In this document: piece by piece, positions 2,735 to 41,274 of the stretch | Layout: each line of letters begins with the position of its first letter | How positions within the stretch are numbered: position 1 is the stretch's first letter | NCBI GenBank assembly: GCA_035634815.1 | Contig: DASQCF010000009.1 | Span: forward strand, 8,585 to 72,584 | DNA: 64,000 bases | DNA from: Solirubrobacterales bacterium | GTDB lineage: Bacteria > Actinomycetota > Thermoleophilia > Solirubrobacterales > 70-9 | Direction of reading: 5' to 3' | Notes under the pieces: generated by a model | The model's database searches: none | Told to the model about the DNA's origin: nothing | The model's input: the letters and a program-made list of their open reading frames with translations, nothing else | Program-made: the position numbers and the translations under genes

Positions 2735-5325
<2,591 letters not shown>

Positions 5326-26898: not shown

Positions 26899-26994
26899 GC
26901 GCCCGTAGCTCAGTGGTCAACGGGTCCTTTCGGGGGCCCAAAGAGCGTCGGTCTTTCAAGCCGAAGGTCGCGGGTTCGACTCCCGTCGGGCGCA
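26899..26994 (+). tRNA. tRNA-Glu(UUC)-like gene with a ~20-nt hairpin insertion in the D loop (96 nt; possibly non-canonical or a pseudogene)
   Basis: Hand-folded. Acceptor GCGCCCG/CGGGCGC + A. D stem GCTC/GAGC enclosing a 31-nt loop. Anticodon arm TCGGT-CTTTCAA-GCCGA. Variable region AGGTC. T arm GCGGG-TTCGACT-CCCGT. No encoded CCA. Confidence 0.6.
26948..26989 (+). repeat. attL-like direct repeat (tRNA anticodon loop to acceptor 3' strand)
   Basis: 38/42 identical to 37457..37498 in the same orientation. Exact blocks of 18 nt and 17 nt. Confidence 0.75.
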
Positions 26995-27218
26995 TTCCTT
27001 GGTGTTCCGGGCCGTGCCGCGCATTGCGCGGTGCAGAGCCAAGTCTTCGGTCTAGTGCTGAACCGGTGTTCCGTTGGCCTCCGCGCGCTTCCGCGCGGTT
27101 CCAGGGCATCTCCGTCTCATTTCCGTCTCAGTAACGGGACCAGCACGTTCTGGCCCATCCGACCCCAGTGGTACCAATTGGGGTTGCAGAGATACCGAAA
27201 CGAAGGATCGGGGAGCCG

Positions 27219-28685
27219 ATGACGCAGGCGAAGGGCGTAATCCCGCGTGGCGAAGACAAAGAGTTGCTGTACAAGAATCCGCAGACGTGCGGCTATTTCG
27301 TTTTTGCGAAGCTCAAACCCGAACTTGATCGGGCCGGGCTGGAGAGCCTTTTTGGCTCCCTTGACCAATTGATCGCGGCTTTGGTTGAGCGTGAACCCCC
27401 CGGCGAGGGAATGGAAAGAGGGCGCAAGGTGGCTGCAGTCGCTGTTGGCCTCGCCCCTTCCCTGTTCGAGCCAGAACGGTTCACGCCTCCGCTTGCCAAG
27501 CCGGCAGGATTTCGGACCAGCGCCCCCTCTGGGGCTGAACTTCCTGAAGTTGCAACGCCCCCGCCTTACGAGGTCGCCCCGCTCTCGGAAGCTCCGAAGG
27601 TCGAGGCTGACATCCTCTTCTACGTTGCCGCGACGATGGAGGCGCGGGTTAACCACTTCCTGTCTGAACTTGCAGCGCTACCCGCAATCCAAGGGCTCGA
27701 CCTCGAGCGCGGCTATCAACGGCTCGATGGGACCGAGCCCTTCGGTTACAAAGATGGCCTACGCAACATCAAGAGCTCGGAACGCTCCACCAGAGTCTTC
27801 GTCCATCGCGACGATCGTCATCTTGAGGAGCCTCAATGGGCCGACGACGGCACCTACTTGGCCTTCATAAGAATCGTCCAGAATCCCGAAACTTTCGCCG
27901 CCCTCCCCGACGATGCTGCTCGCGACGCTGTGATTGGTCGCCTCAAAAACGAGAACGGTGATCGGCTGGATTTAGCTGGCAAAGGCATTGACCCTCATGA
28001 CGAGCCGCCGGATCCTCCGCAGCCTCCCAGCGGTCACGTTGCCAATGTCGGTCCACGCGGAAGTCACGACGACAATGAGATCTACCGCCGGGGACTGCCC
28101 TTCGTGGAAACCGTGGAAGGGCGGCTACGGGTGGGACTTCAGTTCGTCAGCTTCCAAGCCTCTCTGGATCAGTTCGACGTCATCTTCAATGACTGGGCCA
28201 TGAACTTGAACTTCCCCTTGCCTGAAATCGGTCGGGATGCGCTTCTTGACCCGAGCAAAGGCATCGTGACTTTCGAGAAGGTCGGGTTCTTCTTCGTCCC
28301 GCCCTACGATGCTGGAGGCCTCGCTGCTGCCGTGCTGCGTCCAGAGCCTGGAGGCGGAAAACCCAAAACCGGCAAGGTCGTCGTTCGCAAGAGGATTGTC
28401 GACCCCAACGATCCATCACGGCGCTTCGAGCGAGGCGGCTTCACCTTCCAGATCAACGACTCGAACGGCCAGCCAGTCGGTGGTCGATTCACCACCGACT
28501 CCACTGGCCGTGCGCTTGCTCCCGAGGAGTTGACCATCGGAGAGAACTACACGCTCCAGGAGGTCTCTACGCCGTTCGGGGAAAAATTGCAGCTTGTAAA
28601 TGTCTCGTTCGCCATGGACCAGCCTCACAAGGAGCTCGCGATCGAGAACCGCTTCTCCCAACCGAATAACCAGTACGGCGCCTGA
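27219..28685 (+). CDS. Dyp-type peroxidase fused to a C-terminal ~100-aa beta-rich (Cna-B/prealbumin-like) domain
   Basis: ORF trimmed to the ATG at 27219. Dyp motifs GTEPFGYKDGLRN and SGHVANVGPRG...IYRRGLPF. C-terminal GKVVVRKRIVDPND...FTFQINDSNGQPVGGRFTTDSTGRA...YTLQEVSTPFG. Confidence 0.85.
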   Translation: MTQAKGVIPRGEDKELLYKNPQTCGYFVFAKLKPELDRAGLESLFGSLDQLIAALVEREPPGEGMERGRKVAAVAVGLAPSLFEPERFTPPLAKPAGFRTSAPSGAELPEVATPPPYEVAPLSEAPKVEADILFYVAATMEARVNHFLSELAALPAIQGLDLERGYQRLDGTEPFGYKDGLRNIKSSERSTRVFVHRDDRHLEEPQWADDGTYLAFIRIVQNPETFAALPDDAARDAVIGRLKNENGDRLDLAGKGIDPHDEPPDPPQPPSGHVANVGPRGSHDDNEIYRRGLPFVETVEGRLRVGLQFVSFQASLDQFDVIFNDWAMNLNFPLPEIGRDALLDPSKGIVTFEKVGFFFVPPYDAGGLAAAVLRPEPGGGKPKTGKVVVRKRIVDPNDPSRRFERGGFTFQINDSNGQPVGGRFTTDSTGRALAPEELTIGENYTLQEVSTPFGEKLQLVNVSFAMDQPHKELAIENRFSQPNNQYGA

Positions 28686-28730
28686 GGCGTTGGCTAAGCG
28701 GTAGCTGACCCTGTCTCTCGCGCCCGAGCG

Positions 28731-28967
28731 TTAGCGCTTGAGCTTGTCGGCGAGCTTCCCGACCTCGCCCATTGACGACCCGAGCGCTTCCGCGATCCGG
28801 CTGACGGTTCCCCACGCTGGATTCGACTGACCGCGCTCGATCAGCGAGAGGGTGCCGGTGGTGATGCCCGCCTCATGCGAAAGGGCTTCCTGCGTCAGTC
28901 CGCGCTTCTCCCGGAGCTGTCGGATCGCTTTACCGAGCGCGGGCTGAGGTTCATCGGCTCGTCCCAT
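28731..28967 (-). CDS. XRE-family helix-turn-helix regulator
   Basis: LREKRGLTQEALSHEAGITTGTLSLIERGQSNP. Divergent from the wHTH/RHH/xis/int genes. Confidence 0.85.
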   Translation of the reverse strand: MGRADEPQPALGKAIRQLREKRGLTQEALSHEAGITTGTLSLIERGQSNPAWGTVSRIAEALGSSMGEVGKLADKLKR

Positions 28968-29119
28968 GATCGATTACAGGTTTTCAATGACCTGCGTTTA
29001 GCGCCACCTGATTTAAAACTAGTGGTTAAACGACAAAACGGTGCTAGGCTTGACGCTTAGACAAAGCGCCCCCGCGCTGCGCGAACAGCCGGGGGCATGG
29101 CACAGGAGGGTGAACTCCC

Positions 29120-29410
29120 ATGCACGACAAGCCTAGTGGCGCTCATGATGAGCGCGCCACGACCACCGCCGACCAGGACGATCGCGACCAGGCGGCAGTT
29201 CTGCAAGAAGTCTTGTTCATCTACCCCGAGGTTCTGACGCTCGACGAGCTGGCGCGTCAGATGGTCTTCGCTTCTGATGTGTTCAACCAGGCCGACCGAA
29301 TCGAGCGAGCCGTGCGTGACCTCACGAGAGCCGGTCTCTTGCATCAGGTCGGCCCGCTCGTCCTCCCGACGAGGACCGCCGTGGTCTTCGCTCGGCTGGT
29401 GGAACTCTGA
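29120..29410 (+). CDS. Hypothetical small protein, possible winged-helix DNA binder
   Basis: 96 aa. LTLDELARQM...RAVRDLTRAGLLHQVG pattern. GGAGGG ribosome-binding site upstream. Confidence 0.55.
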   Translation: MHDKPSGAHDERATTTADQDDRDQAAVLQEVLFIYPEVLTLDELARQMVFASDVFNQADRIERAVRDLTRAGLLHQVGPLVLPTRTAVVFARLVEL

Positions 29411-29435
29411 TGGGCCGTCGATGGAGGCGGAAGGC

Positions 29436-29663
29436 ATGAGCGACGTGGTGGTCTCGACCGTCCGGCTCTCAAGGGAAATGGCGGCCGCGCTCAGCGCGGT
29501 CGCCCGCGCCGACGAGATGCCGGTATCCGAGGCCCTCAGAGAAGCGATTGACAGGCACATCGCAATCCGAAGAGCTGATCACGCATTCCAAGAACGCCTG
29601 AAGAAGTGCCTCGCAGAAGACCGAGAGGTCCTTGAACTCATAAGTGGAGGAGGCACCAAGTGA
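29436..29663 (+). CDS. Ribbon-helix-helix-like small protein
   Basis: STVRLSREMAAALSAVARADEMPVSEALREAI. ATG at 29436 follows GGAGGCGGAAGG. An alternative in-frame ATG lies at 29421. Confidence 0.6.
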   Translation: MSDVVVSTVRLSREMAAALSAVARADEMPVSEALREAIDRHIAIRRADHAFQERLKKCLAEDREVLELISGGGTK

Positions 29664-29941
29664 CCCCTCACGCACTATCGCCGGAGAGCCTCCGAACCTC
29701 CAACCTCGACCCCCGACACACTACGAACCCTCCGGATTCGTGCCTGAGCGGCCCGTTTCCGAGCCGCGGGCAAAACCTCCGCCGGGAGGAGCCGACCGCC
29801 CCTCCGGGCGGCCGATTTTGGCACGGCTTCGCCGTGCGGAGGCCGCCTGTAGGGAGGGGCGGTAGGGGTCTGACCTTCGGTCTCCTGAAGGCGCCGAAAT
29901 CTTGGCCGATGCAGATGACCCCCACCTTGGACAGTGGTGGC

Positions 29942-30136
29942 ATGGAGAGGAAATCCAGCAAGCCGAGTTTCTTCACCGAGCGCACCCTCGCCGACTTCCT
30001 CGCGGTCAGCGACCGGACCATCCGCAACTGGATCAGGCGCGGCGACCTGCCCAGCTACAAGCTCGGAGCGGCGAGGCGGATAGATCCCGCCGACGTCGAG
30101 GCCTTCCTTGCTCGGCACAGGGACGAGACGGCATGA
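29942..30136 (+). CDS. xis: Excisionase-family (MerR/HTH_17-like) DNA-binding protein
   Basis: FFTERTLADFLAVSDRTIRNWIRRGDLPSYKLG. Its stop overlaps the integrase ATG (ATGA). Start uncertain; alternatives at 29909 and 29915. Confidence 0.75.
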   Translation: MERKSSKPSFFTERTLADFLAVSDRTIRNWIRRGDLPSYKLGAARRIDPADVEAFLARHRDETA

Positions 30137-31224
30137 GGCGCGAGGCGCCGCTCAAACGGCGCAACCCCTCGGGCAAGATTGTGTGGGTCGCCCGTTATAC
30201 GGGCCGCGATGGCAAGTACCGCATCGCCAAGCCCACCTGGAACCGCGGCAAGGGCACCTTCACCAGGAAGGCCGATGCTCAGAGAGCTATCGACGAGGCC
30301 TACGGTCTCTCCGACCGACCCGACACCCTCGGCGACTATGCCGCCACCTGGACCGAGCGCCACCCACGCTCCGAACGGACCAATGCAACGAACGACCACC
30401 GCATCAGCCGTGTCGCCGACGTAGAGATCGAGGGCATCCCGCTGAAGGACTGGCCGCTGCGCGAGCTACGCCGCCGTCACACGCTGGCCCTGGTCGATCA
30501 CATGCTGAGGACCGAAGGTCGAACCACCACCGGAGCCGTCGGCATCCTCCGGGCTCTTTCAGCAATGGCCGAGGATGCGATCACCGACGAAGTCTGCGAC
30601 CTCAACCCCTTCAAGGGCATCCGCATCCGAGCCAACGACCCGCGAGCGAAGAAGAAGCCAAGACCGATCCGCGTCTTCACCTTCGAGGAGATGCACCGCT
30701 TCGCGAAAGCTGCCGGTCGCTACGAGGCAATGGTTCGCGTCTTCACCGACTGCGGCTTGAGGCTGGGGGAGGTGCTGCCCCTCCGCCCCGAAGATTTCGA
30801 CGGCGAAACGCTCCAGGTCCGCCGCACCGCCCACGAGGGACAGATTCTCGAGGGCACCAAGACCGACCACGGCGAGCCCGACGCCGGCCGCGTCGTTCCC
30901 GTCCCCGCAACCCTCGCCTGGATGCTAGAAGCCCAGATCAACCTCAACGGCCCCGACTGCCACCTCCTCTTCCCGACCCCGCGCGGTCGCCTCTGGCGCG
31001 AGCGCACCTTCTACCGCGACCTCTGGAAGCCCGCTCAAGAAGCTTCCGGCCTAGACATCCGCCCCCACGAGTGCCGCCACAGCTACGTCACGCACCTAAG
31101 AGCTGCTGGGGTGAACGACGCCGACTTGGCGGAAATCGCGGGCCATAGGGTCGAGACGATGCTGGCGCGGTATACGCACGCGTTGGGAAATAGCTTCGGT
31201 CAGGTTAGGGAGGTGATCGACTAG
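30133..31224 (+). CDS. int: Tyrosine-type site-specific integrase
   Basis: In-frame ATG at 30133. N-terminal SAM-like/arm-binding region. Catalytic LRLGEV (Arg), HECRHSYVTHL and GHRVETMLARYTH (R..HxxR..Y). Confidence 0.92.
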   Translation: MRREAPLKRRNPSGKIVWVARYTGRDGKYRIAKPTWNRGKGTFTRKADAQRAIDEAYGLSDRPDTLGDYAATWTERHPRSERTNATNDHRISRVADVEIEGIPLKDWPLRELRRRHTLALVDHMLRTEGRTTTGAVGILRALSAMAEDAITDEVCDLNPFKGIRIRANDPRAKKKPRPIRVFTFEEMHRFAKAAGRYEAMVRVFTDCGLRLGEVLPLRPEDFDGETLQVRRTAHEGQILEGTKTDHGEPDAGRVVPVPATLAWMLEAQINLNGPDCHLLFPTPRGRLWRERTFYRDLWKPAQEASGLDIRPHECRHSYVTHLRAAGVNDADLAEIAGHRVETMLARYTHALGNSFGQVREVID

Positions 31225-31423
31225 GTCGCGGGTCCCATTGGGGCCAGGCCGCACCCCTCTGGTGTCTCAGCAACGAGATCAGCTTGACGCTTGCCTGTAA
31301 TCGGCAATCCGATTTCCACCACTTTAAGGTATTCGTGGGGTAGGCTTCACCTATCTCTCGCGTATCGCTAACCAAATGGGGCTCCCCTATAAGGAGCAAC
31401 CGTCCTTGATCCCCTGAAAAGAG

Positions 31424-31801
31424 TTGGTTGATTTGGTTCCCAATCTGGCTGCGGCAGGTGGATCTACCGGCGCGACTGAAGCGCTTTCGTCGGCAGAAGC
31501 GCTTGCTGTCTCAATAACGATGGAGGGCCTGCTGTTCGCGGCATTCGCGGTTGGGAACAAGCTCACCGAGGCGACGGAGAAGGGTCGAAGCCCCTTCTAC
31601 ACGCAGGGTTGGTTCGGGTGGGGCATCGTCGTGGTGATCGCACTCGTAGCCGCCGGTGCCGCGGGGGCCTGGTGGGAACAGTTTGGCCATGATTGGCCAA
31701 CTAACTTTCGAGACCTACTTCTAGGGCTTGGACTGGCAATAGGAATCGTGAGCCAGCCAGCCTTTGCAGCCGTAATCAATTACGAGTCGAAGAGGACCTA
31801 G
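31424..31801 (+). CDS. Small integral membrane protein (about 3 TM), hypothetical
   Basis: TTG at 31424, with an alternative ATG at 31520. Hydrophobic segments GLLFAAFAV, WGIVVVIALVAAGAAGAWW and LLLGLGLAIGIV. The stop lies 2 nt before the next ATG. Confidence 0.55.
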   Translation: MVDLVPNLAAAGGSTGATEALSSAEALAVSITMEGLLFAAFAVGNKLTEATEKGRSPFYTQGWFGWGIVVVIALVAAGAAGAWWEQFGHDWPTNFRDLLLGLGLAIGIVSQPAFAAVINYESKRT

Positions 31802-31803
31802 TC

Positions 31804-33594
31804 ATGCCCACTTTCATGACCGCTGCGGAGAAGCAGAAGGCGAAAGATATGGGTGTCCCATCCTTCTTCAAAGGAAAGAGGTTCCGAAGCATTAGGGAGG
31901 AGCATCTATTCGCTGCCCTCGATGGTGCAGTGGCGGCGATGAAGGGACTTTCATCGCCAGATCCGTATAACGGTCGGATTCTTGGTGCCATGGCCGTGCA
32001 GCTGGTGATGAACGATCCGCGAGCTCTAGGTGACATCAGTAAGAGAAAGATCCTCTCTTTTTCGCAATCATCAGAAGAGGACCGGGCGCAGTTCTTCGAG
32101 TTGCTTGGCTTCGAAATCAGCGAACGGTACTTACAGGCACGAAAGGAGGAGATTCCAGAGGAGACTCTGTTTATGTCGTCTGAGTCACTCGTGGAGAAGT
32201 TGGGTGACATTTTTGAGGAAATGACGGAACTCGGTAAGCAGATGGGGAATGTTGTGGTGATGGCAGACGAGATCTCGCTGATCGTTGAAAATGATATGCC
32301 GGACGCTGTGAATATCGCTCAGGGCATTGTTGAAGGGGTCGTCGGGTCTTTCGAGAGCTTGGTGCCATCCGTTGACGCCAGTGGTGAGATCCCGAATCCT
32401 GTTCAGCGTCGGGCTGTTGCCAAAGCCGCCTTTCTTCGGCTTGGAGTAGAGGACTTGGTTCAGCTTGCCGCCGAAAGAGACATCACTAATCTTCCCAACA
32501 AGGCGGCACTTGCGAAAGCGCTCGCGGAGGCCTACCAAGATGATCTGGACGAGGTCGCACGGCTGACGGTCAGAGAAGCTGAAGGTGAGGCTGCTTTCGG
32601 ATTGGTATCTCGTCTCCTTCCCTTGTCGAAAGCCCCCGATCTTGCCGCTGCAAAGAAAGGGTTTGAGTCCCTCCGGGGGCATTACGTCGAGGTCAAGCCA
32701 GCGGTGTTCTTCGTCTACCGGGATGTTTCGCTTTCGCCAGATGGGGCGTTCTTAACGATCACTGGCGCAATGCGCTCCTTCCATGTCGCGCCAGTCGAAG
32801 TCATGGGAACGGTCCAGCTCAATCCAAAGCCGCGAAAAGATGACATCACCATCAAACTTCAGAATGACGAGAAGTGGGCAGTCGTGACGGCTCGGCGGGC
32901 ATCCGACCTAGCGTCGATAGGAGCGGTCTTACGGAGAAGTGGTGAGGTCTCAACGGCAGGCGCTGTGGCAGCGCCAGATCCTCTTGCGGATGCCCCATTC
33001 AATACTTGGGACCCACGGTCACTCTGGATTTTGGAATTGTTCCGCCGGAACTTTCAAGCCGACGCACTGACTCTCCAGGACACCCTAATGGCGAACTTTG
33101 ACTCCCCGAAAGGCTCTGACTTGGCAGACGAGGAGGGGGAAGGAGAGGGGATTCCACCAAGGCTGGCGTCCGTGAAACTCAAAGGGCAAAGACTTCACGA
33201 CCACCCGGAGGTGTGTAGCCGACTTGTGCAGCGGTCACATCTAAAGGACGTTGAATTCCGCCTTCGCAAAGTAACCGATCAAGAGAAGAACTTCTCGACT
33301 CTTACTCGTGTCCGACTTGCATGGGAACGTGACCACCTTGCGGTGATGACCGGGGACAGCGGGGCAACTTATGATCCAGACCTGCACCAGCTTCTTGTTC
33401 GCCTTGTTCGAGCTGCGGCCGAGCGCCCCCTTAGCACCGAGCTGATTCCAATTCTCAAGAATGTTCAGGCTAGGTCGAAAGAGACTGATGTCAAAGCTGG
33501 AGCAAAAGGCGTCCTTGATAACGGGTCGGCTGTTCCCCCTGAGCCGGAAGACGGGCAAATCACCGTCACTGCCGCAGGGGAGACGGCTTCCTAG
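31804..33594 (+). CDS. Hypothetical 596-aa protein, no domain recognised (possible SAP-like helix pair near residues 215-245)
   Basis: Long ORF with ordinary amino-acid composition in a ~50% G+C stretch. Coupled to the preceding membrane-protein gene. Confidence 0.75.
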   Translation: MPTFMTAAEKQKAKDMGVPSFFKGKRFRSIREEHLFAALDGAVAAMKGLSSPDPYNGRILGAMAVQLVMNDPRALGDISKRKILSFSQSSEEDRAQFFELLGFEISERYLQARKEEIPEETLFMSSESLVEKLGDIFEEMTELGKQMGNVVVMADEISLIVENDMPDAVNIAQGIVEGVVGSFESLVPSVDASGEIPNPVQRRAVAKAAFLRLGVEDLVQLAAERDITNLPNKAALAKALAEAYQDDLDEVARLTVREAEGEAAFGLVSRLLPLSKAPDLAAAKKGFESLRGHYVEVKPAVFFVYRDVSLSPDGAFLTITGAMRSFHVAPVEVMGTVQLNPKPRKDDITIKLQNDEKWAVVTARRASDLASIGAVLRRSGEVSTAGAVAAPDPLADAPFNTWDPRSLWILELFRRNFQADALTLQDTLMANFDSPKGSDLADEEGEGEGIPPRLASVKLKGQRLHDHPEVCSRLVQRSHLKDVEFRLRKVTDQEKNFSTLTRVRLAWERDHLAVMTGDSGATYDPDLHQLLVRLVRAAAERPLSTELIPILKNVQARSKETDVKAGAKGVLDNGSAVPPEPEDGQITVTAAGETAS

Positions 33595-33795
33595 CTTGAG
33601 AGTAAGCCGTGATGCCGAGGGACGCCTATTTGGCGGTCGCAATCGAATCGCATGGCTGTTGGGAGTCATTCCCTGCGCAGATGTTCCGGCGAAACCTAGC
33701 TCTACAGCGGTCAACATCAGACGCAGCCAGCAGGTTATCCCGAAGGATTGTGACTGAAGTCTCGATTCGGGGCTCGTCGGCGGTACCATGAGCCG

Positions 33796-34041
33796 ATGAC
33801 CACGAAGGAGCGACTTCACAAGCTGGTCGATGAGCTTTCTGACCAGGAGGCCGAGGCCGCGTTGGTGATTGTTGAGCGTCGGCGCGATGACCCGATGCTG
33901 CATGCGCTTGCGTCCGCTCCGCTTGATGACGAGCCCTCTGACGCCGATGAGGACGCTAGCGCGACTGAGGCGCTTGCCGCTCATATTCGGGGAGAGTCAA
34001 TTTCCTCGGAGCAGTTGCGCGCCGAACTCGATCTCGATTGA
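33796..34041 (+). CDS. Type II antitoxin (partner of the RelE/ParE toxin)
   Basis: 81 aa and acidic. 4-nt overlap with the downstream RelE/ParE gene. Confidence 0.7.
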   Translation: MTTKERLHKLVDELSDQEAEAALVIVERRRDDPMLHALASAPLDDEPSDADEDASATEALAAHIRGESISSEQLRAELDLD

Positions 34042-34298
34042 CCACCGGTTGGTCACTGCGTATTGCGCCACCGGCTCGGCGTGATCTGAAGCGACTTGAT
34101 CCACCGGTTCGGAGGCGGATTCTGGATGCCCTCGACAAGTTCGTGGCAGCGCCGCGCCAGGGGGACATTCGGAAACTCAACCCAGTCCAATGGCGTCTAC
34201 GGGTTGGCGACTGGCGCGTGCGCTTCAGCTTCGATGACGAGAATCAGGTGATCATCGTCTTGCGGGTGCTTCCACGCGGTCGAGCATACGATCGGTGA
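34038..34298 (+). CDS. RelE/ParE-family toxin
   Basis: LRIAPPARRDLKRLDPPVRRRI...WRLRVGDWRVRFSFDDENQVIIVLRVLPRGRAY. Confidence 0.85.
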   Translation: MTTGWSLRIAPPARRDLKRLDPPVRRRILDALDKFVAAPRQGDIRKLNPVQWRLRVGDWRVRFSFDDENQVIIVLRVLPRGRAYDR

Positions 34299-34404
34299 TG
34301 ACGATTCATGCGGTGCGTGAAGATCACCATCGGCTCGGCACCTTCCGGATGGCAGAGGGTGTACGGACGCACACCTTTGAAACGACATCTGCGACCATAT
34401 TCTC

Positions 34405-37374
34405 ATGGGAACTGCCGCGACAAATTCCGACCCAGGCGCGAGTCCTTCTCCGAGCAAAGGACAGCAACCTCAGATTCCGGCGGATCTCTTACAAGCCCCG
34501 GAATCCACGGTTCAGCCGCCCGCGGCGACGGCGCGCCAGTTGCTTCCGATAGCAGAACTCTCATGGCAAGATTTCGAGCGCTTATGTACGCAGATCGCGG
34601 TCGAAGAAGGAGATGCGGAGATTGTGAAGCGCTTCGGTTCTCCTGGGCAGGCGCAGAGTGGAATAGATATATACGCTCGAAAGAAGAACGGACGATACGT
34701 TGTTTACCAATGCCGCCAGCGAAAATCGCTGACGTCGCGGGACATCAAGGCGGCCGTGGAGGACTTCGCCAAAGGTGAGTGGGCTCCTCTCGCTGAAGAG
34801 TTTGTGATCTGCACTTCGGCCGATGGCTCCTCGGCTCAGGTGTTGAAAGAGCTTGAGAAGCAAGCTTCGGCAATGCGCACCGCGCATCCGGGGCTCTCTG
34901 TGAGGCTTGATGATCGGGCCGACCTATCCATGCGATTAAAGGGGTGTCCGGACCTTGTACTCGATTTCTTTGGGCCAGCCTGGGTTGATCAATTTCTAAA
35001 GAAGAGCTCGCAACAACCGTTGAGCCCAGAGATTGTGAGGAAGTTACCTCGTCTTAAGGACCTGTCATGGCGAGAGCTAGGAGTGCGACGTGCCGGGCGA
35101 GCGTGCGATGCAGATGGATGGACCCCAAAGTTGGAGCGCCCGGTCGATAGCAAGCTTCGCGCTTTGCTTCGCAGGGCGGTGAAGCCCGCGCAAGAAGAAC
35201 GAGACAGCATGAGGTTCATTGTCCTAATTGGAGAGCCGGGCACCGGGAAGTCTCGTGCCATGTTCGATGCGGTGACTGCCATCTGTCCTGAGGCTTGGAT
35301 TTACCGGCCGAATCATCACGATCCATCGAGTCTCGCCGCAGTGCTGGATCGCGGCGACCTAGCGCGGTTCGCGCCAGAGCCGCGGACTCCCCTTTTGATC
35401 TGGCTGGATGATTTGGAGTTATTCGTACCTCCTGATGAAACTGGACTGACTGCGGCTCGCATAAACACCCTTCGTTACTCGAATAGGCCTATCGTGGTAC
35501 TAGCCACTGCTGGCGGAAAGTCGGCAGACATCGCGCGCGCTCGACGGTCAGCTCCCGACGATAAGGGGACCGTATTATCCTTAGTTCTGGCAGAGCGTAC
35601 CGTTCAGGTGCGTGTGGCAGCAAAGGGCCTCACTACGGCGGTAATAGAGAAGGGGGTCGACGCAGGGGACTACCAGCGGGATGATGCTGCGGCAATCCGC
35701 GCTCACGGTGTTGGCCCCTTCGTCCTCGGAGCCGACCTGCTGTTCTTGAAGCTTCACACCGGCCGCTTCCCTCCGGAGGCGCCACCATCGAGCGCAGGCG
35801 TGGCTGTAACCAAAGCAGTGCTGGCCTGGAACGCATGCGGTATACCTAGGCCAATTGATCGGGAACGCTTGAAGAAGTTGTGGATGCATTACTTTCAAGG
35901 CGAGCCATCTGAGGTTGAATTTGAGGAAGGTCTTGCTTGGGCTCAAGAGCCTGTTATTGGTGACATGGCTTTACTTGAGCGAGAGGAGTTGCAGTACCGT
36001 TGTAACGATCTAGTTGTGGCAGCGAGTCGGCTTACCATGGAAAAAGGCGACTACCTTAGAGTTCTCAATGCTGCAGGCCCCTCGGAGGCTGCATGGATCC
36101 CATACGGGGGTGGAGGCTTTCAACCGCGGGTGGACGCGCTGAAGGAGTTCCTGCGTCAACACGAGCCTTTGGATGATGCATGGTGGCCATTTGAGGTAGC
36201 CATGGGTCATGTATGGCGAACGCTGAGTCAGCCGGAGCTTGCCCGAAAATCGTGGGAGAAAGGGCTTGCAGACGGCTGTTTTTGCGCGGCAGTGTCTATT
36301 TCGCGGATGAAATCTGATGAAGGCGATCTATCCGGTGCTGCTGAGGCTTTGCAGCGGCTTTTGGATGGGGGCTTCGGTGGAGTCGCGATCGAGGCGAGCA
36401 GTCTCTACACCCGAATGGGAGACCACAAGGGGTCGTTGGCCGCACTTGAATCTGGGGCGGAGGCTGGAGATGGGGAGAGTGCTTTCGTCCTTGGGCGTCG
36501 GCTTAGGCGGGTTGACGAGAAGCAGGCAGAGTGGGCCCTACGAAAGGCTCTGGAACTAGGCTTTGGAGGCGCGTGGAGTTCCTTGTGGTCTATCTACATG
36601 GGGCGGGAAGAGTACGCATCTGCAGAGAAGGTTGCGCTGCAAGGAGCCGACTTAGGTATAGGGGAAGCGGCATGTGTATTAGGTCTTTTGAGAGAGGAAC
36701 ATCTTCGGGACCAACAAGGTGCCATTGAGGCATACCGCCATGCCTGTGACCTTGAAGAGTTGATCGCCTATGCATTGCTCGGAAATCTCTATCGGAGCCG
36801 AGGCGAGGACGGGGACGATGAGCGCGCGATCGCTGCGTTCGAAACGGGGGCAACCCTTGGCTCGGCAGAGAGCAGTCACATGCTTGGCCACCATTTAGAA
36901 GATGGCGGAGATATCGATGGAGCAGCCAATGCCTTTGAGGAGGCCATAACGCTAGGGGGGCTACAACCCGTTGCCTGCTTAGGGAAGCTCAATAGCACGA
37001 GGAATCTCGTGTTGGCGCGAGAGCGAGCCCAATCTGCGGCAGAACGCCGATCAACGCCTTCGGTGCTCTTTTGGCTGGCCAGTGCTACGCAGGCAGTGGA
37101 TGGCATAGAGGCTGCGGACCCGATTTGGCAAGCAGTACTGGATACTCGCCATAGAGAGACCATCTATCGAGCGGGAGTGTACCGTCGCGATGAAGGCGAC
37201 TTTGAGGGTGCTGAGCGCATGTTGCTCGAGGCCGACGAGTTAGGGTTTCCCGCCGCCGCATGCGCCATCGGACACATGTGGGAGAAAAGGGGTCGAAAGG
37301 AGCTTGCCCGTGAAGCTGGCCGACGCGCGAGAGCCCTCGGGCACGAGTGCACGCTCGCAGAGGCCAGAAAGTAG
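34405..37374 (+). CDS. Mrr-like restriction-endonuclease domain + P-loop NTPase + Sel1/TPR-like repeat protein (STAND/Avs-like)
   Basis: WQDFERLC...SGIDIYARKKNGRYVVYQCRQ nuclease signature. Walker A LIGEPGTGKS and Walker B-like LLIWLDDLE. C-terminal degenerate Sel1-like repeats (ESAFVLGRRL, GEAACVLGLL, AESSHMLGHHLE, AAACAIGHMWE). Confidence 0.85.
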   Translation: MGTAATNSDPGASPSPSKGQQPQIPADLLQAPESTVQPPAATARQLLPIAELSWQDFERLCTQIAVEEGDAEIVKRFGSPGQAQSGIDIYARKKNGRYVVYQCRQRKSLTSRDIKAAVEDFAKGEWAPLAEEFVICTSADGSSAQVLKELEKQASAMRTAHPGLSVRLDDRADLSMRLKGCPDLVLDFFGPAWVDQFLKKSSQQPLSPEIVRKLPRLKDLSWRELGVRRAGRACDADGWTPKLERPVDSKLRALLRRAVKPAQEERDSMRFIVLIGEPGTGKSRAMFDAVTAICPEAWIYRPNHHDPSSLAAVLDRGDLARFAPEPRTPLLIWLDDLELFVPPDETGLTAARINTLRYSNRPIVVLATAGGKSADIARARRSAPDDKGTVLSLVLAERTVQVRVAAKGLTTAVIEKGVDAGDYQRDDAAAIRAHGVGPFVLGADLLFLKLHTGRFPPEAPPSSAGVAVTKAVLAWNACGIPRPIDRERLKKLWMHYFQGEPSEVEFEEGLAWAQEPVIGDMALLEREELQYRCNDLVVAASRLTMEKGDYLRVLNAAGPSEAAWIPYGGGGFQPRVDALKEFLRQHEPLDDAWWPFEVAMGHVWRTLSQPELARKSWEKGLADGCFCAAVSISRMKSDEGDLSGAAEALQRLLDGGFGGVAIEASSLYTRMGDHKGSLAALESGAEAGDGESAFVLGRRLRRVDEKQAEWALRKALELGFGGAWSSLWSIYMGREEYASAEKVALQGADLGIGEAACVLGLLREEHLRDQQGAIEAYRHACDLEELIAYALLGNLYRSRGEDGDDERAIAAFETGATLGSAESSHMLGHHLEDGGDIDGAANAFEEAITLGGLQPVACLGKLNSTRNLVLARERAQSAAERRSTPSVLFWLASATQAVDGIEAADPIWQAVLDTRHRETIYRAGVYRRDEGDFEGAERMLLEADELGFPAAACAIGHMWEKRGRKELAREAGRRARALGHECTLAEARK

Positions 37375-37456
37375 ACCTTTTGATCCAGTAGATCCCGGTC
37401 CCAGTCTCATCTCGGTCGCATCGCTTCTGGAATCCCACTCCTCACGCGACGGTCAT

Positions 37457-37498
37457 TCGTCCTTTCAAGCCGAAGGTCGGAGGTTCGACTCCCGTCGG
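37457..37498 (+). repeat. attR-like degenerate copy of the tRNA 3' half
   Basis: TCGTCCTTTCAAGCCGAAGGTCGGAGGTTCGACTCCCGTCGG is 38/42 identical to 26948..26989. It cannot form an intact T stem, and no tRNA 5' half lies upstream. Confidence 0.75.
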
Positions 37499-37517: not shown

Positions 37518-38996
37518 TCACGGTTCCACGAGTGCTTTTACCTCGGCGCGATTGGTGCGTGCTTCGCCGGACCAGCGGTGGGGGGTCCCTCCGATTTTCG
37601 CTTCGCAGGTGAGTAGGGAGGGGAGGCAGTGGACCGTTGCGACGATTCCGGCCTCGGTGCTGCGGAGGGCGAAACGCTCTTCATCCCCATTGGCGGTGCC
37701 GTCGGCTATCGGATACACGCCACCTGGCGTGACTGATGCGATCGCCTGCCACGGTCCCAGTAGGCCTGGCCCCGCGACGGTGTAGGCGACGTCACGGTCG
37801 GTGTATTGCCCGCACCCCGTCTTATTGTCGCCATCGCGAATCGGCCCGGCGGAGGCGTCGTCGCGGACCAGGACAAAGGAACCGTCGCGGCTGTCGATCA
37901 CGTAGGCGTCGCCGTCGCCACCCACACTGAAGCGGTCTTCGGCGGAGATCAGTTGCTTGTTGCGGATCATCGGCAAGGCGAATTCGGCTGCTTGTTCCAG
38001 TAGGTATACGGGGTGCTCCAAGCCATCGAAGGCGAGCGCGATGCCCCTCAACTGACCTTCGCAATAGCCAGGCACATACCACGAGTTGGACAGTCCGGGT
38101 ATCGGGCGCGCCCGCCCGGGGCAGCCGGCGATGTCGAAGCCCAGCGCCTCCATCGGCCCGGTTTCCAGGCCGTGCACTTCATGCCAGGCAAGGGCCAGCG
38201 CCTCCCGCTGGGGTTCGGGAACCCCGACCGGCAGGTACCGACTGCTGCAGTCTTCACTCACCGGCCGGGTGTGATGCACGTTGCCTCCGCCTTTGGATTC
38301 GTCTGGTGGTTCCGGCGCCACGGTGCTTCCGACGGCGCCCGCGACCGCGATCAGGCTGATCGCAAAGGTCGAGCACCAGAGAGCCCAGCTTGTATGGCTG
38401 AGGTTGCCGTCCTCGGTGTCCCGACCGTTGAGCCTCTCCCGAAGCGCGTCGACGGTGTCGTCCTTGGCTTGAGCCAGCCGGTTGTCGAGCTCGACCCATA
38501 TGAACGAGCCGCGGATTACATCGGTGGCGCGCGGGGCCCGGTAGCCGGTCTTCTCTTTCAAGGCTTCGCGGTCAATCTCCATCTGGGTCGCCGACCAGAA
38601 CAGGAGCCCAGTACTGAGCAGCCAGATCCCAGCGAGCATGTAGAGCTTTGGGTCCGGGTGGAGGTCAAGGACACCGACGCCGCAGGTCCAGACCACGAGG
38701 AGGGCGAATTCGAACCAGGTCGCGCGCGCGAGGCCGATCGAGAAGTAGCGCTCGTAGAGGTGCAGGCAGTGGTGGCAGAGGAGCAGCGCCCAGCCGAGTT
38801 GGTAGGCGATGGTGAGCAGATGCGAGAGCCCTTCCCAGCCGCCTGACCGCAGGGCGGAGCCGCAGAGGACGAGTGCCGACGACCCGATCGTCGCCGCCGT
38901 CTTGCGGCCGATCGGAACCTTGGAAACGTCTCCTTGAAGCCACGCCTTCATCCCCATCTCCCCCTCTGTCTCTCGGTTGACTGGCGAGTCAGCCAA
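37518..38996 (-). CDS. Multi-pass membrane protein with a large C-terminal soluble domain, hypothetical
   Basis: 492 aa. About five hydrophobic segments in the first 250 aa, then a Cys-containing soluble region. Intermediate G+C. Confidence 0.65.
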   Translation of the reverse strand: MADSPVNRETEGEMGMKAWLQGDVSKVPIGRKTAATIGSSALVLCGSALRSGGWEGLSHLLTIAYQLGWALLLCHHCLHLYERYFSIGLARATWFEFALLVVWTCGVGVLDLHPDPKLYMLAGIWLLSTGLLFWSATQMEIDREALKEKTGYRAPRATDVIRGSFIWVELDNRLAQAKDDTVDALRERLNGRDTEDGNLSHTSWALWCSTFAISLIAVAGAVGSTVAPEPPDESKGGGNVHHTRPVSEDCSSRYLPVGVPEPQREALALAWHEVHGLETGPMEALGFDIAGCPGRARPIPGLSNSWYVPGYCEGQLRGIALAFDGLEHPVYLLEQAAEFALPMIRNKQLISAEDRFSVGGDGDAYVIDSRDGSFVLVRDDASAGPIRDGDNKTGCGQYTDRDVAYTVAGPGLLGPWQAIASVTPGGVYPIADGTANGDEERFALRSTEAGIVATVHCLPSLLTCEAKIGGTPHRWSGEARTNRAEVKALVEP

Positions 38997-40572: not shown

Positions 40573-41274
40573 ATGCCGAGAGACGCGCTGAGGAAATCGC
40601 ATGTTGGGATCCAGCTGAACGACCGTTCGGCCAAGATGGAGCGCCGGCTGGGGGTTGCGCTGGGGGAGATGGAGGAGGCGATCCAGGCTGACTTTGGGCT
40701 GACGGCGGTGGTCGAGAAGAGGATGATGCTGTCGACGATCGTTGATGCGATGAACGCGCATTACGGCGCTCAGGCTCCGGTTTCGTTCGAGCCGGCCTAT
40801 CGCGGTGGTGACACCTGGCTGCAGCCCGATGGGGGTTTTTGGACCATCGAGGAGTGGGACGACCCCTCGCGAGTGATTCTTGTCGCCGAGGTGAAGCGGC
40901 AGGGAACCAATGACGCTCGGGCGCGGGAAGGGAAGGAGAAACAGTCGCGGGGCAATGCGATCGAGCGCCTGGGGAAGAACATGCGGGGGATCGACGCGCT
41001 CTTCTCCGGCGAGCGGATAACGCCGTTCGTCTGCTTCGGCGAGGGGTGCGATTTCGGCGAGGACAGCTCCATCCGCGACCGGGTGGCGACCCTGAACGGG
41101 TTCTTCCCCCTCAACGAGATCTTCGTCGACAAGGTCGCGGTGGGGGATGACACGCTGAAGCCGACCTCCATGTACTTTCGCGAAGAACCCTGGACGCCGG
41201 CTGAGATGGCAGAGGTGCTGATCCCGGTGGCGCGGCGGTCGATCGAGTACTACCGGGAGAAATACAAACTCTAG
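40573..41274 (+). CDS. EcoRI-family type II restriction endonuclease-like protein
   Basis: Collinear with recalled EcoRI motifs. LQPDGGFW...VILVAEVKRQG matches IKPDGGIV...VVLVAEAKHQG. GNAIERLGKNMRGI matches GNAIERSHKNISEI. PFVCFGEGCDF matches PYVLFLEGSNF. Catalytic D and E-x-K are retained. AGGAGGG ribosome-binding site lies 9 nt upstream. Confidence 0.8.
   Translation: MPRDALRKSHVGIQLNDRSAKMERRLGVALGEMEEAIQADFGLTAVVEKRMMLSTIVDAMNAHYGAQAPVSFEPAYRGGDTWLQPDGGFWTIEEWDDPSRVILVAEVKRQGTNDARAREGKEKQSRGNAIERLGKNMRGIDALFSGERITPFVCFGEGCDFGEDSSIRDRVATLNGFFPLNEIFVDKVAVGDDTLKPTSMYFREEPWTPAEMAEVLIPVARRSIEYYREKYKL

Follow-up and report, generated by a model that had tools for sequence, protein, structure and literature searches.

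A 989-aa protein encoded in the window, as the whole stretch of 64,000 nucleotides analysed here is called, is probably a single-gene Avs-like abortive-infection sensor that is carried as accessory cargo of a tRNA-integrating element. The probability of this reading is put at about 0.6. The combination of a nuclease, an ATP switch, and a helical-repeat sensor is the standard layout of antiviral STAND proteins, which makes the protein a plausible candidate of a known kind. Module swapping among its relatives, its position as cargo of a mobile element, and a nuclease relative located beside CBASS favor a role in defense, whereas the predominance of TM-hairpin forms without a defense-island signal and the lack of a PADLOC match count against it. 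Conceptually, the protein remains within the established Avs paradigm and opens no new question. If active, it would represent a further Avs-like receptor, in this case from Solirubrobacterales/Thermoleophilia, a lineage of soil bacteria for which, to our knowledge, essentially no phage defense has been studied experimentally.

The gene and its protein

The ORF is located at positions 34405-37374 on the forward strand, starts with ATG, and ends with the stop codon at 37372-37374. Judging from its sequence, it is a genuine coding gene, because it has a full-length orthologue (P0002, 60% identical over residues 17-984) and 2,521 relatives in a protein sequence search (E≤1e-3), and because its codon-position GC is of the coding type, with GC1 (0.67) exceeding GC2 (0.49). 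The GC3 of about 0.56-0.57 in both the gene and its orthologue looks foreign, as the GC3 of the hosts is above 0.9. The following features were assigned within the gene:

34405-34548, + strand: low-confidence N-terminus followed by a Pro-rich leader, residues 1-48 (pLDDT and column conservation)
34549-35004, + strand: Mrr-type PD-(D/E)xK domain, predicted effector, residues 49-200 (Mrr_cat, topology, Foldseek)
34576-34578, 34666-34668, 34708-34710, and 34714-34716, + strand: catalytic-motif codons for E58, D88, Q102, and R104, respectively (family conservation)
35137-35619, + strand: P-loop nucleotide-binding domain with five strands, residues 245-405 (alignments, AF2, Pfam, hhalign)
35230-35253, + strand: Walker A, G276-S283 (GEPGTGKS; conserved in clade alignments)
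35392-35418, + strand: Walker B, L330-E338 (LLIWLDDLE; conserved in clade alignments)
35620-36039, + strand: helical lid (residues 406-480) and winged helix with β-hairpin (residues 481-545) (AF2, conserved columns)
36040-37371, + strand: TPR/SLR-type α-solenoid, predicted sensor, residues 546-989, 444 aa (AF2, PDB profile, Foldseek)

The coordinates and motifs given in a preliminary description of this DNA are exact: WQDFERLC, SGIDIYARKKNGRYVVYQCRQ, FVICTS, LIGEPGTGKS, and LLIWLDDLE all occur in the translation, as do the repeat peptides ESAFVLGRRL, GEAACVLGLL, AESSHMLGHHLE, and AAACAIGHMWE. The AF2 model of the full-length protein has a mean pLDDT of 83.5 and contains both the nuclease fold and the NTPase fold, on whose prediction that description had staked its case. 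Of its three-part layout, the Mrr-type nuclease and the STAND-like NTPase with a P-loop can be kept, and so can a C-terminus of helical repeats, but not the specific Sel1 label for the repeats. Residues 1-24 are modeled with a pLDDT below 50. In the Pro-rich leader, the columns P25, L28, P32, P38, P39, T42, Q45, L47, and P48 are conserved in an alignment of 143 N-domains. A Pfam scan of the protein detected no HTH for DNA binding and no other domain with a regulatory output, nor did it reveal a DNA-recognition domain such as SRA, YTH, or a winged helix preceding the nuclease.

The N-terminal nuclease domain

Profile matches and structural models identify the N-terminal domain as an Mrr-type PD-(D/E)xK nuclease fold. 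The Mrr_cat-like pattern that had been noticed in the sequence passes the Pfam threshold when residues 21-210 are scanned alone (PF04471, 23.7 bits vs GA 21) and is also matched by 19 of 22 relatives (best E 1.5e-7); in the full-length scan, the score is 20.1 bits and thus just under GA. The Mrr_cat family is typical of modification-dependent restriction enzymes. Both the full-length model and a model of the nuclease domain alone (pLDDT 89.7, pTM 0.85) have the topology α-β-β-β-α-β. The separate model was required because full-length Foldseek searches are swamped by generic TPR proteins. Its Foldseek matches are the N-domain of RPB5, EndoMS/NucS, Avs4 (8dgf_A), EcoO109I, Cap4, Card1, Can2, and MUS81, with E-values that are modest (2e-4 to 0.08) but with a restriction-endonuclease fold that is consistent across the matches. 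The comparison with Avs structures suggested in the preliminary description thus had a positive outcome for this domain, which aligns with the Avs4 chain over 163 columns at a probability of 0.98. A PDB sequence-profile search found no relative of the N-domain and therefore provides no classification.

The catalytic signature of the fold is E...D...(E/Q)xK, of which E58, D88, and Q102 are present while the lysine position is occupied by R104. Across the 143 N-domains, E58 is conserved in 141, D88 in 142, and Q102 in all; position 104 is a lysine in 116 (81%) and an arginine in 27. Proteins with R104 are found in several architectures, among them NACHT fusions, and E58-D88-Q102 has been kept in 25 of the 26 other than the present one. 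This retention across architectures suggests that purifying selection acts on a working site. The nuclease domain of P0002 is 67% identical and also has R104.

The NTPase core, lid, and winged helix

Walker A and a Walker B-like motif had been pointed out in the central part of the protein, and both turned out to be conserved across the family. Alignments and the AF2 model agree on a P-loop domain whose Walker A is accompanied by a Walker B of the type hhhhDD/DE. The modeled strands comprise residues 269-275, 298-300, 330-336, 363-369, and 399-403; a conserved strand with the pattern VVLATxGGK lies at residues 363-372. The domain is followed in the model by helices at 411-477, a winged helix and hairpin at 486-542, and the TPR solenoid from about residue 572. 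The lid contains an invariant G435 within an HGVGP motif. On the basis of this model, residues 406-545 may represent the HD1 and WHD of STAND proteins, and the predicted order of nucleotide-binding domain, helical domain, winged helix, and repeat sensor is that of NOD-type proteins.

The central domain looks STAND-like, with a weak relationship to named families according to profile and model comparisons. The best Pfam matches of the NTPase core are AAA_16 (24.5-27.4 bits vs GA 32.6) and nSTAND_NTPase5 (PF25199; 19.6-22 bits vs GA 34), and these sub-threshold scores place the protein outside both families by their curated thresholds. At E≤0.01, AAA_16 is matched by 15 and nSTAND_NTPase5 by 11 of 21 clade members; P0136, a distant member of the clade, passes the gathering score of nSTAND_NTPase5 (37.6 vs 34). 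An hhalign comparison with NACHT reached 67% probability (E=5e-5, 128 columns). A PDB sequence-profile search with the NTPase core found faint AAA+ similarity only and supplies no classification. According to the Pfam and PDB profile searches, the NTPase is not of the translocase or helicase type.

The C-terminal repeats

The solenoid is modeled as about 25 helices forming about 13 pairs with a period of 32-34 aa. The preliminary description had assigned the C-terminal part to degenerate Sel1-like repeats. Helical repeats indeed extend over the C-terminal ~440 aa, but the Sel1 label is a loose one: Pfam Sel1 (PF08238) has no match at E≤0.1 in the protein, and the period differs from the 36-44 aa of Sel1-like repeats. 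When the family profile was compared with the PDB, a consensus TPR scored E=2.9e-44 and Sel1-like proteins scored 1e-7 to 1e-4. Structural matches to TPR-annotated and Sel1-annotated proteins were found in about equal numbers by Foldseek and include OGT, SPINDLY, CTPR, and Sel1-annotated viral proteins. Some repeats have an SLR-like A-x-x-G-x3-A-x3-LG motif. Given these motifs and the Sel1-annotated matches, the solenoid is most safely described as generic TPR/SLR-type. The sensor had also been regarded as unusual, a view that was abandoned since the repeats are generic and TPR-like repeats are the commonest sensor type of Avs proteins (PMC13581612). The solenoid is the part of the protein that has diverged most from P0002, with 53% identity compared to 65-72% elsewhere.

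Comparison with known antiviral STAND proteins

Avs2 and Avs4 were reportedly described by Gao et al. in 2022 as antiviral STAND proteins whose N-terminus is an Mrr-like nuclease (structure 8dgf). Like these, the 989-aa protein is encoded by a single gene and has a predicted N-terminal nuclease of the Mrr/REase fold, an NTPase with helical domain and winged helix, and a TPR-like sensor that spans at least 400 aa at the C-terminus. In contrast to them, it is 989 rather than about 1,500 aa long, its NTPase has AAA_16 and nSTAND5 and not the Avs2/4 clades as its closest matches, its catalytic lysine is replaced by arginine, and its host belongs to the Actinomycetota. Membership in Avs1-4, for which a PADLOC search had been proposed, was not supported: the Avs2 model matched residues 55-148 weakly with its positions 18-113 (E=0.006, 12.3 bits), eight relatives scored no better, and no other Avs model matched at E≤0.1. 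Neither the NTPase nor the sensor of the protein or of these eight relatives is matched by any PADLOC model, and the compact NTPase lies outside the coverage of the PADLOC 2.0 models. Avs3 and Avs4 were also absent from the best 50 PDB matches in the full-length Foldseek search.

The same concept of effector, NTPase, and sensor is found in NACHT (bNACHT/NLR-related) proteins. The nuclease module is also fused to NACHT proteins of about 1,600 aa and Solirubrobacterales type, which have the same N-domain at 35-47% identity. However, the NTPase of these proteins is Pfam-positive for NACHT and their C-termini are unrelated in sequence to the TPR array. The sole near-full-length structural matches in Foldseek were 9zjs, which is of SAMD9/Avs5 type (1,007 columns, E=8e-11), and the STAND-TPR protein 6mfv from archaea (741 columns, E=2e-9). 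Both share the succession of NTPase and TPR solenoid, but they have different N-terminal modules and align with TM-scores of only 0.22-0.25 and identities of 9-13%; much of the score may come from the TPR part. Avs proteins in the broad sense of Lee et al. 2026 unite three parts in a single polypeptide, namely an N-terminal defense-type effector (an effector criterion taken from PMC13581612), a STAND NTPase, and a sensor of 400 aa or more at the C-terminus. According to Pfam and AF2, the 989-aa protein has this layout, with an Mrr effector, a NOD-like module, and a TPR-type C-terminus of 444 aa.

The integrated element

Several features in the region upstream and downstream of the gene belong to a mobile element:

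26899-26994: tRNA gene (ARAGORN, Rfam)
26953-26989, + strand: attL, 3' part of the tRNA gene (37-bp direct repeat; ARAGORN and Rfam for the tRNA)
30133-31224, + strand: tyrosine integrase, element backbone (NCBIfam Xer/integrase)
31424-33594, + strand: gene pair encoding proteins of 125 and 596 aa, element backbone (conserved in the sister elements L092 and L093)
33796-34298, + strand: antitoxin (81 aa) and ParE/RelE-family toxin (86 aa), neighboring cargo in the variable slot (ParE_toxin, PHROG)
37462-37498, + strand: attR, copy of the tRNA 3' part (37-bp direct repeat)

The two 37-bp att repeats are identical at 35 of 37 positions (E=1.4e-11). From this arrangement, the gene is cargo of a ~10.5-kb element integrated at the tRNA, in which it occupies a variable slot as the last gene, with attR located 88 bp downstream of its stop codon. 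Rfam aligns the general tRNA model to the 96-nt tRNA with a 25-nt insertion in the D-loop, which ruled out an assignment as tRNA-Sec. The integrase is 84.5% identical to that of L092, which has its own 47-bp attR. The 125/596-aa pair, for which Pfam, PADLOC, NCBIfam, and PHROG contain no family match, is conserved beside different cargo in L092 and L093, with identities of 55-62%. In the sister elements, the same slot holds either DUF4145 with MNT/HepT or a HEPN gene; the 989-aa gene is missing there and consequently lies outside the element backbone. Such tRNA-integrating elements of about 10 kb with a variable slot before attR offer a possible handle on further defense cargo in these genomes.

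The toxin of the neighboring pair was assigned by ParE_toxin (46.4 bits) and by a PHROG match to a RelE-like toxin. Besides a single-gene system in an island, the preliminary description had considered a multi-gene system comprising this toxin-antitoxin pair and the 125/596-aa pair. Both partners were rejected, as neither adjoins P0002 and the 125/596-aa pair is backbone that is common to elements with other cargo. The island context and the single-gene reading were supported. P0002 has no neighbor in common with the window and adjoins an integrase and a relaxase. An EcoRI-like REase gene is located 3 kb downstream of the 989-aa gene, outside the element. In the region from 33.5 to 37.7 kb, no Rfam RNA family was found at E≤0.01 and no sigma-70-type promoter was matched; terminator-like sites were not in excess (4 vs 3.2 expected from shuffling).

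Relatives and exchange of N-terminal modules

In species-representative genomes, at least 307 loci belong to the clade defined by the NTPase core with the motif hhWLDDLE. The clade members mostly consist of a 2-TM hairpin, NTPase, WHD, and TPR; a TM hairpin is present at the N-terminus of 64 of 78 genomic relatives with the same NTPase-TPR chassis. Other N-terminal modules on this chassis are TIR (P0070), NNH2 (P0009, P0030), and Mrr, so that the clade represents a natural experiment in effector exchange. Mrr, TIR, and TM hairpins are typical cell-killing effectors. Further Mrr-fused orthologues were not found in a single-sequence metagenome scan, and no Mrr-like N-domain occurred among 40 loci from an alignment-based metagenome scan or 80 loci from a genome scan. 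Tentatively, and with less confidence than for the protein itself, the clade could be an undescribed, Actinomycetota-restricted family of Avs type with a swappable N-terminal killing module (TM hairpin, Mrr, TIR, NNH2) and a TPR sensor for a conserved actinophage protein. The 989-aa protein would then be its rare nuclease-armed form borne by a mobile element.

The defense-island association proposed for homologs was only partly recovered. One NACHT relative with the same nuclease module adjoins type II CBASS, a Cap15-like gene, and HipBA, and one paralogue adjoins a Wadjet-like JetABCD cluster, but the 140 immediate neighbors of 73 genomic clade members include no recurrent partner and no convincing defense genes. 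Among these neighbors are about seven mobile-element genes and four generic Ser/Thr kinases, the PADLOC matches of which were not counted as evidence for defense. Several paralogues are located among metabolic genes. Defense and non-defense STAND clades are interspersed (PMC13581612).

Proposed mechanism and alternative explanations

By analogy with Avs3, Avs4, and Avs7, the resting protein would be an autoinhibited monomer; ligand, oligomerization, nuclease activity, and protective effect are likewise put forward by analogy. The ligand bound by the TPR-type solenoid would come from the invader and would most likely be a phage protein. Binding would free the module of NTPase, lid, and winged helix for ATP binding and oligomerization, and the N-terminal Mrr-type nuclease domains gathered in this way would degrade DNA indiscriminately. 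Phage replication would thereby be halted at a cost to the cell.

A non-immune role is unlikely but has several observations in its favor. The protein could serve signaling or regulation in Actinomycetota or benefit the element through maintenance, addiction, or exclusion, and the action of its Mrr domain on DNA would serve this role. The interspersed STAND clades mentioned above are compatible with such a role, as is the dominance of TM-hairpin forms among ordinary metabolic genes without defense enrichment in their neighborhoods, and the gene adjoins a toxin-antitoxin addiction module on an integrative element. However, the protein has no detectable HTH or regulatory output domain in Pfam, the alternative N-terminal modules of the clade are of the killing type, and the sister elements do without the gene. 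An NTP-dependent restriction-like enzyme of type IV or Mrr-like kind, which would recognize foreign or modified DNA directly, with the NTPase regulating cleavage and the TPR part mediating self-assembly, is improbable. The Mrr_cat nuclease and the nearby EcoRI-like gene point in this direction, but the latter lies outside the element, the Pfam scan revealed no DNA-recognition domain, the NTPase is of neither the translocase nor the helicase type, and the same chassis is combined with TM or TIR modules, which do not act on DNA.

Lysine is usually essential in PD-(D/E)xK enzymes, and its replacement in the 989-aa protein would fit a decaying or repurposed relative with an impaired site that acts as a DNA binder, scaffold, or decoy. 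There is little chance that this is the case, as arginine recurs at this position across architectures together with an otherwise preserved site, is retained in P0002, and occurs here in an ORF that is intact over 989 codons. With R104, the protein offers a naturally occurring K-to-R exchange in the catalytic site of an Mrr domain.

Gene and domain order

The 989-aa protein is chimeric: it joins two modules that are each widely distributed, an Mrr-like nuclease and an NTPase-TPR chassis. Its ORF, 34405-37374 (+), is a real gene: all peptide motifs quoted in the preliminary description are found in its translation, its codon-position GC of 0.67/0.49/0.57 follows the coding pattern GC1 > GC2, and it has a full-length orthologue with 60% identity (P0002). 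When 1.84 billion cluster representatives were searched exhaustively with HMMER, 2,521 relatives were found at E<=1e-3. The sole identical public protein, P0001 (586 aa, JGI), has its start called at a GTG inside the gene, at residue 404 (window 35614). The nuclease and Walker motifs are missing from this annotation, and the architecture would thus escape screens that rely on annotated genes. An AlphaFold2 model based on a 27-row alignment (mean pLDDT 83.5) predicts the following order, which together with the Mrr_cat match agrees with the nuclease, NTPase and repeat architecture proposed from the sequence.

Predicted anatomy of the 989-aa protein
Residues 1-24: disordered start
After residues 1-24: conserved Pro-rich leader
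Residues ~49-200: alpha-beta-beta-beta-alpha-beta domain, then a linker
Residues 245-405: five-stranded P-loop domain
Residues 276-283: Walker A, GEPGTGKS, within the P-loop domain
Residues 330-338: Walker B, LLIWLDDLE, within the P-loop domain
Residues 406-480: helical lid
Residues 481-545: winged helix with beta-hairpin
Residue 546 to C-terminus: ~25 helices forming ~13 pairs with a 32-34-residue period

Nuclease, NTPase and repeats

Mrr_cat falls marginally short of its threshold of 21 bits in the full-length scan (20.1 bits) and exceeds it when the nuclease domain is scanned by itself (23.7 bits). Among 22 relatives, Mrr_cat matches 19 and Mrr_cat_2 six. A nuclease-only structure model (pLDDT 89.7, pTM 0.85) retrieves the restriction-endonuclease fold of the RPB5 N-domain, EndoMS/NucS, EcoO109I, Cap4, Card1, Can2 and MUS81, with modest E-values (2e-4 to 0.08) and a consistent fold assignment, and aligns with Avs4 (8dgf_A) at a probability of 0.98 over 163 columns. 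The proposed Mrr-like nuclease fold is thereby supported. It represents a divergent Mrr branch, since a PDB sequence-profile search with the N-domain gave no match.

The NTPase core is, by sequence, only weakly related to named families. Its nearest Pfam families are AAA_16 and nSTAND_NTPase5, and the query stays under both gathering scores (24.5-27.4 vs 32.6 bits and 19.6-22 vs 34 bits, respectively). At E<=0.01 these models match 15/21 and 11/21 clade members, and the distant member P0136 lies above the nSTAND5 threshold. A comparison by hhalign with the NACHT modules of nuclease-sharing proteins gave 67% probability (E=5e-5) from Walker A to strand 4, and a PDB profile search with the core detected only faint AAA+ similarity. 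Near-full-length Foldseek matches to SAMD9 and the archaeal STAND-TPR protein 6mfv, together with the predicted NBD-lid-WHD-repeat order, support a STAND-like central module.

The repeats are safely described as a TPR/SLR-type solenoid. The Pfam Sel1 model had no match on the protein at E<=0.1, and TPR models are faint on the query and significant in relatives. A family profile matches consensus TPR (E=2.9e-44), OGT (1e-14) and Sel1-like proteins (1e-7 to 1e-4); Foldseek retrieves both TPR-annotated and Sel1-annotated proteins. The earlier idea of an unusual Sel1 sensor is not supported. According to a 2026 survey of prokaryotic STANDs (PMC13581612) most Avs sensors are TPR-like, so a sensor of this type is nothing out of the ordinary. 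The TPR array is also the most divergent part between the orthologues (53% vs 65-72% identity).

Exchange of modules

The nuclease module (residues ~24-205) also occurs in NACHT proteins of ~1,600 aa, as well as in further architectures. The NTPase-TPR chassis is confined to Actinomycetota; in species-representative genomes at least 307 loci were confirmed, most of them from Solirubrobacterales/Thermoleophilia. None of 120 NTPase-related loci carried the Mrr module, and only about six representatives combine it with this NTPase (P0002, P0031, P0034, P0143, P0027/28). At 64 of 78 NTPase-clade loci at least one TM segment, usually a hairpin, is predicted ahead of Walker A; other members carry TIR (P0070), NNH2 (P0009, P0030) or KAP fusions. 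Abortive-infection effectors usually show this pattern, in which TM, TIR and nuclease modules replace one another at a single position. The dominant form (loci L009-L088) has two predicted TM helices ~85-125 residues upstream of Walker A, and some MAGs harbor two or more clade copies (e.g., L040/L047 and L053/L058).

The integrated element

Across the region, GC falls from ~70% to ~57%. A 37-bp direct repeat of the 3' part of a tRNA (26953-26989) recurs at 37462-37498, 88 bp past the stop of the 989-aa ORF, and thus delimits an integrated element of ~10.5 kb that contains a tyrosine integrase. The sister element L092 (4603-13887) occupies the same tRNA (98% identical), has its own 47-bp attR and shares with the window element the integrase (84.5%), the HTH gene (67%) and a pair of genes for 125/130-aa and 596/593-aa proteins (62%). 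Its slot before attR holds a 185-aa gene, a DUF4145 gene, a 418-aa gene and an MNT/HepT pair. The second sister element, L093, has a 125/596-aa-type pair followed by a HEPN gene. From this comparison the 125/596-aa pair belongs to the backbone, and the ParE TA and the 989-aa gene are variable cargo.

Organization of the element (window 26953-37498; L092 4603-13887)
Backbone: HTH gene, excisionase-like gene, integrase, 125-aa gene, 596-aa gene
Cargo slot, window: ParE TA and Mrr-STAND gene
Cargo slot, L092: DUF4145 gene, 418-aa gene, MNT/HepT

The 989-aa gene has 13 TTA codons and a GC3 of 0.57, compared with 0.93-0.96 in flanking host genes and 0.82 in the integrase. The cargo block at 31.4-37.4 kb has a GC3 of 0.57-0.65, and P0002 (L001 10001-12919) one of 0.56 in another host of ~70% GC. 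Such codon usage points to circulation within a mobile gene pool of lower GC content, or to selection that favors poor expression.

Elements of ~10 kb with a variable slot before attR form a family at this tRNA in Solirubrobacterales. The 125-aa and 596-aa proteins (31424-33594, +) had no match in Pfam, NCBIfam, PADLOC or PHROGs; 29 homologues have 45-79% identity and are all ~590 aa long. A hypothetical protein from a Solirubrobacterales MAG matches the 596-aa protein at 100% identity. The pair, found together in L092 and L093, may serve element maintenance or replication or form its own system. Between attL and the HTH gene lies a 505-aa fusion of a Dyp-type peroxidase C-terminal domain and a SpaA-like prealbumin-fold domain (27168-28685, GC3 0.67), which is missing from L092. 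ARAGORN assigns the 96-nt tRNA (26899-26994) to Pro(GGG). In its alignment to the Rfam tRNA model (65.6 bits) the gene shows a 25-nt D-loop insertion and the anticodon loop CUUUCAA, implying anticodon UUC (Glu). The insertion is conserved rather than decayed, since it is included in the 98% identical L092 tRNA (4554-4649).

Function and genomic context

The 989-aa protein is probably an Avs-like single-gene sensor, a reading to which we assign a probability of roughly 0.6. By analogy with Avs3, Avs4 and Avs7, the TPR solenoid, once it has bound a ligand, would allow the NOD-like module to oligomerize in an ATP-dependent manner, and the clustered Mrr nuclease domains would thereby be activated and confer protection. 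It would work like Avs2 and Avs4 but is not a member of either by PADLOC models. Nor is it a new kind against the background of the 589 STAND clades and the structurally distinct Avs families, at least 90 in number, described to date (PMC13581612). That a single gene suffices, as initially proposed, agrees with the backbone status of the 125/596-aa pair in L092 and L093 and with the orthologue P0002, which adjoins an integrase and a relaxase and shares no neighbors with the window; the suggested multi-gene system is disfavored on the same grounds.

An impaired nuclease is one rival reading. Among 143 aligned N-domains, E58 (141), D88 (142) and Q102 (143) are near-invariant, and position 104 carries K in 116 sequences and R in the other 27, among them the query and P0002. 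R104 variants are spread over several architectures and 25 of 26 others keep E-D-Q, which argues for a functional catalytic site. A DNA-sensing restriction-like enzyme is a second rival. A non-immune or element-serving role is the third: among the 140 immediate neighbors of 73 genomic clade members no partner recurred and none was a convincing defence gene, and several paralogues are situated among metabolic genes, both of which speak against defence. On the other side, a NACHT protein of 1,634 aa that shares the Mrr-like N-domain adjoins type II CBASS, a Cap15-like gene, HipBA and an integrase (L090 432-7518, L091 1512-9065; DncV-like cyclase, E1/E2 and patatin, with a JAB gene in L091), a textbook defence island. 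The nuclease-less paralogue P0006 has a JetABCD-like, Wadjet-like four-gene cluster directly upstream (L004 1286-9361, L005 1020-9095; DUF2397, DUF2398, an SbcC-like 1,347-aa gene and DUF3323/DUF2399). At the same chromosomal spot, by AMP-binding and HpaB genes, L002 and L003 carry hydrogenase genes instead of this cluster.

Outside attR, a 63-65% GC stretch (37.5-41 kb), which may be an older island remnant, contains a 233-aa ORF that matches the EcoRI restriction endonuclease family (40573-41274; Pfam 44 bits, PADLOC REase_II E=1.8e-13), although over no more of the 257 profile positions than 71-159. Its immediate neighbors yielded no methyltransferase in a scan that covered the upstream one, a ROK-family gene (Pfam, NCBIfam); a 224-aa ORF lies downstream. 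The 492-aa ORF immediately outside attR (37518-38996, -) matched no family in any library, and its N-terminal third appears hydrophobic by eye.
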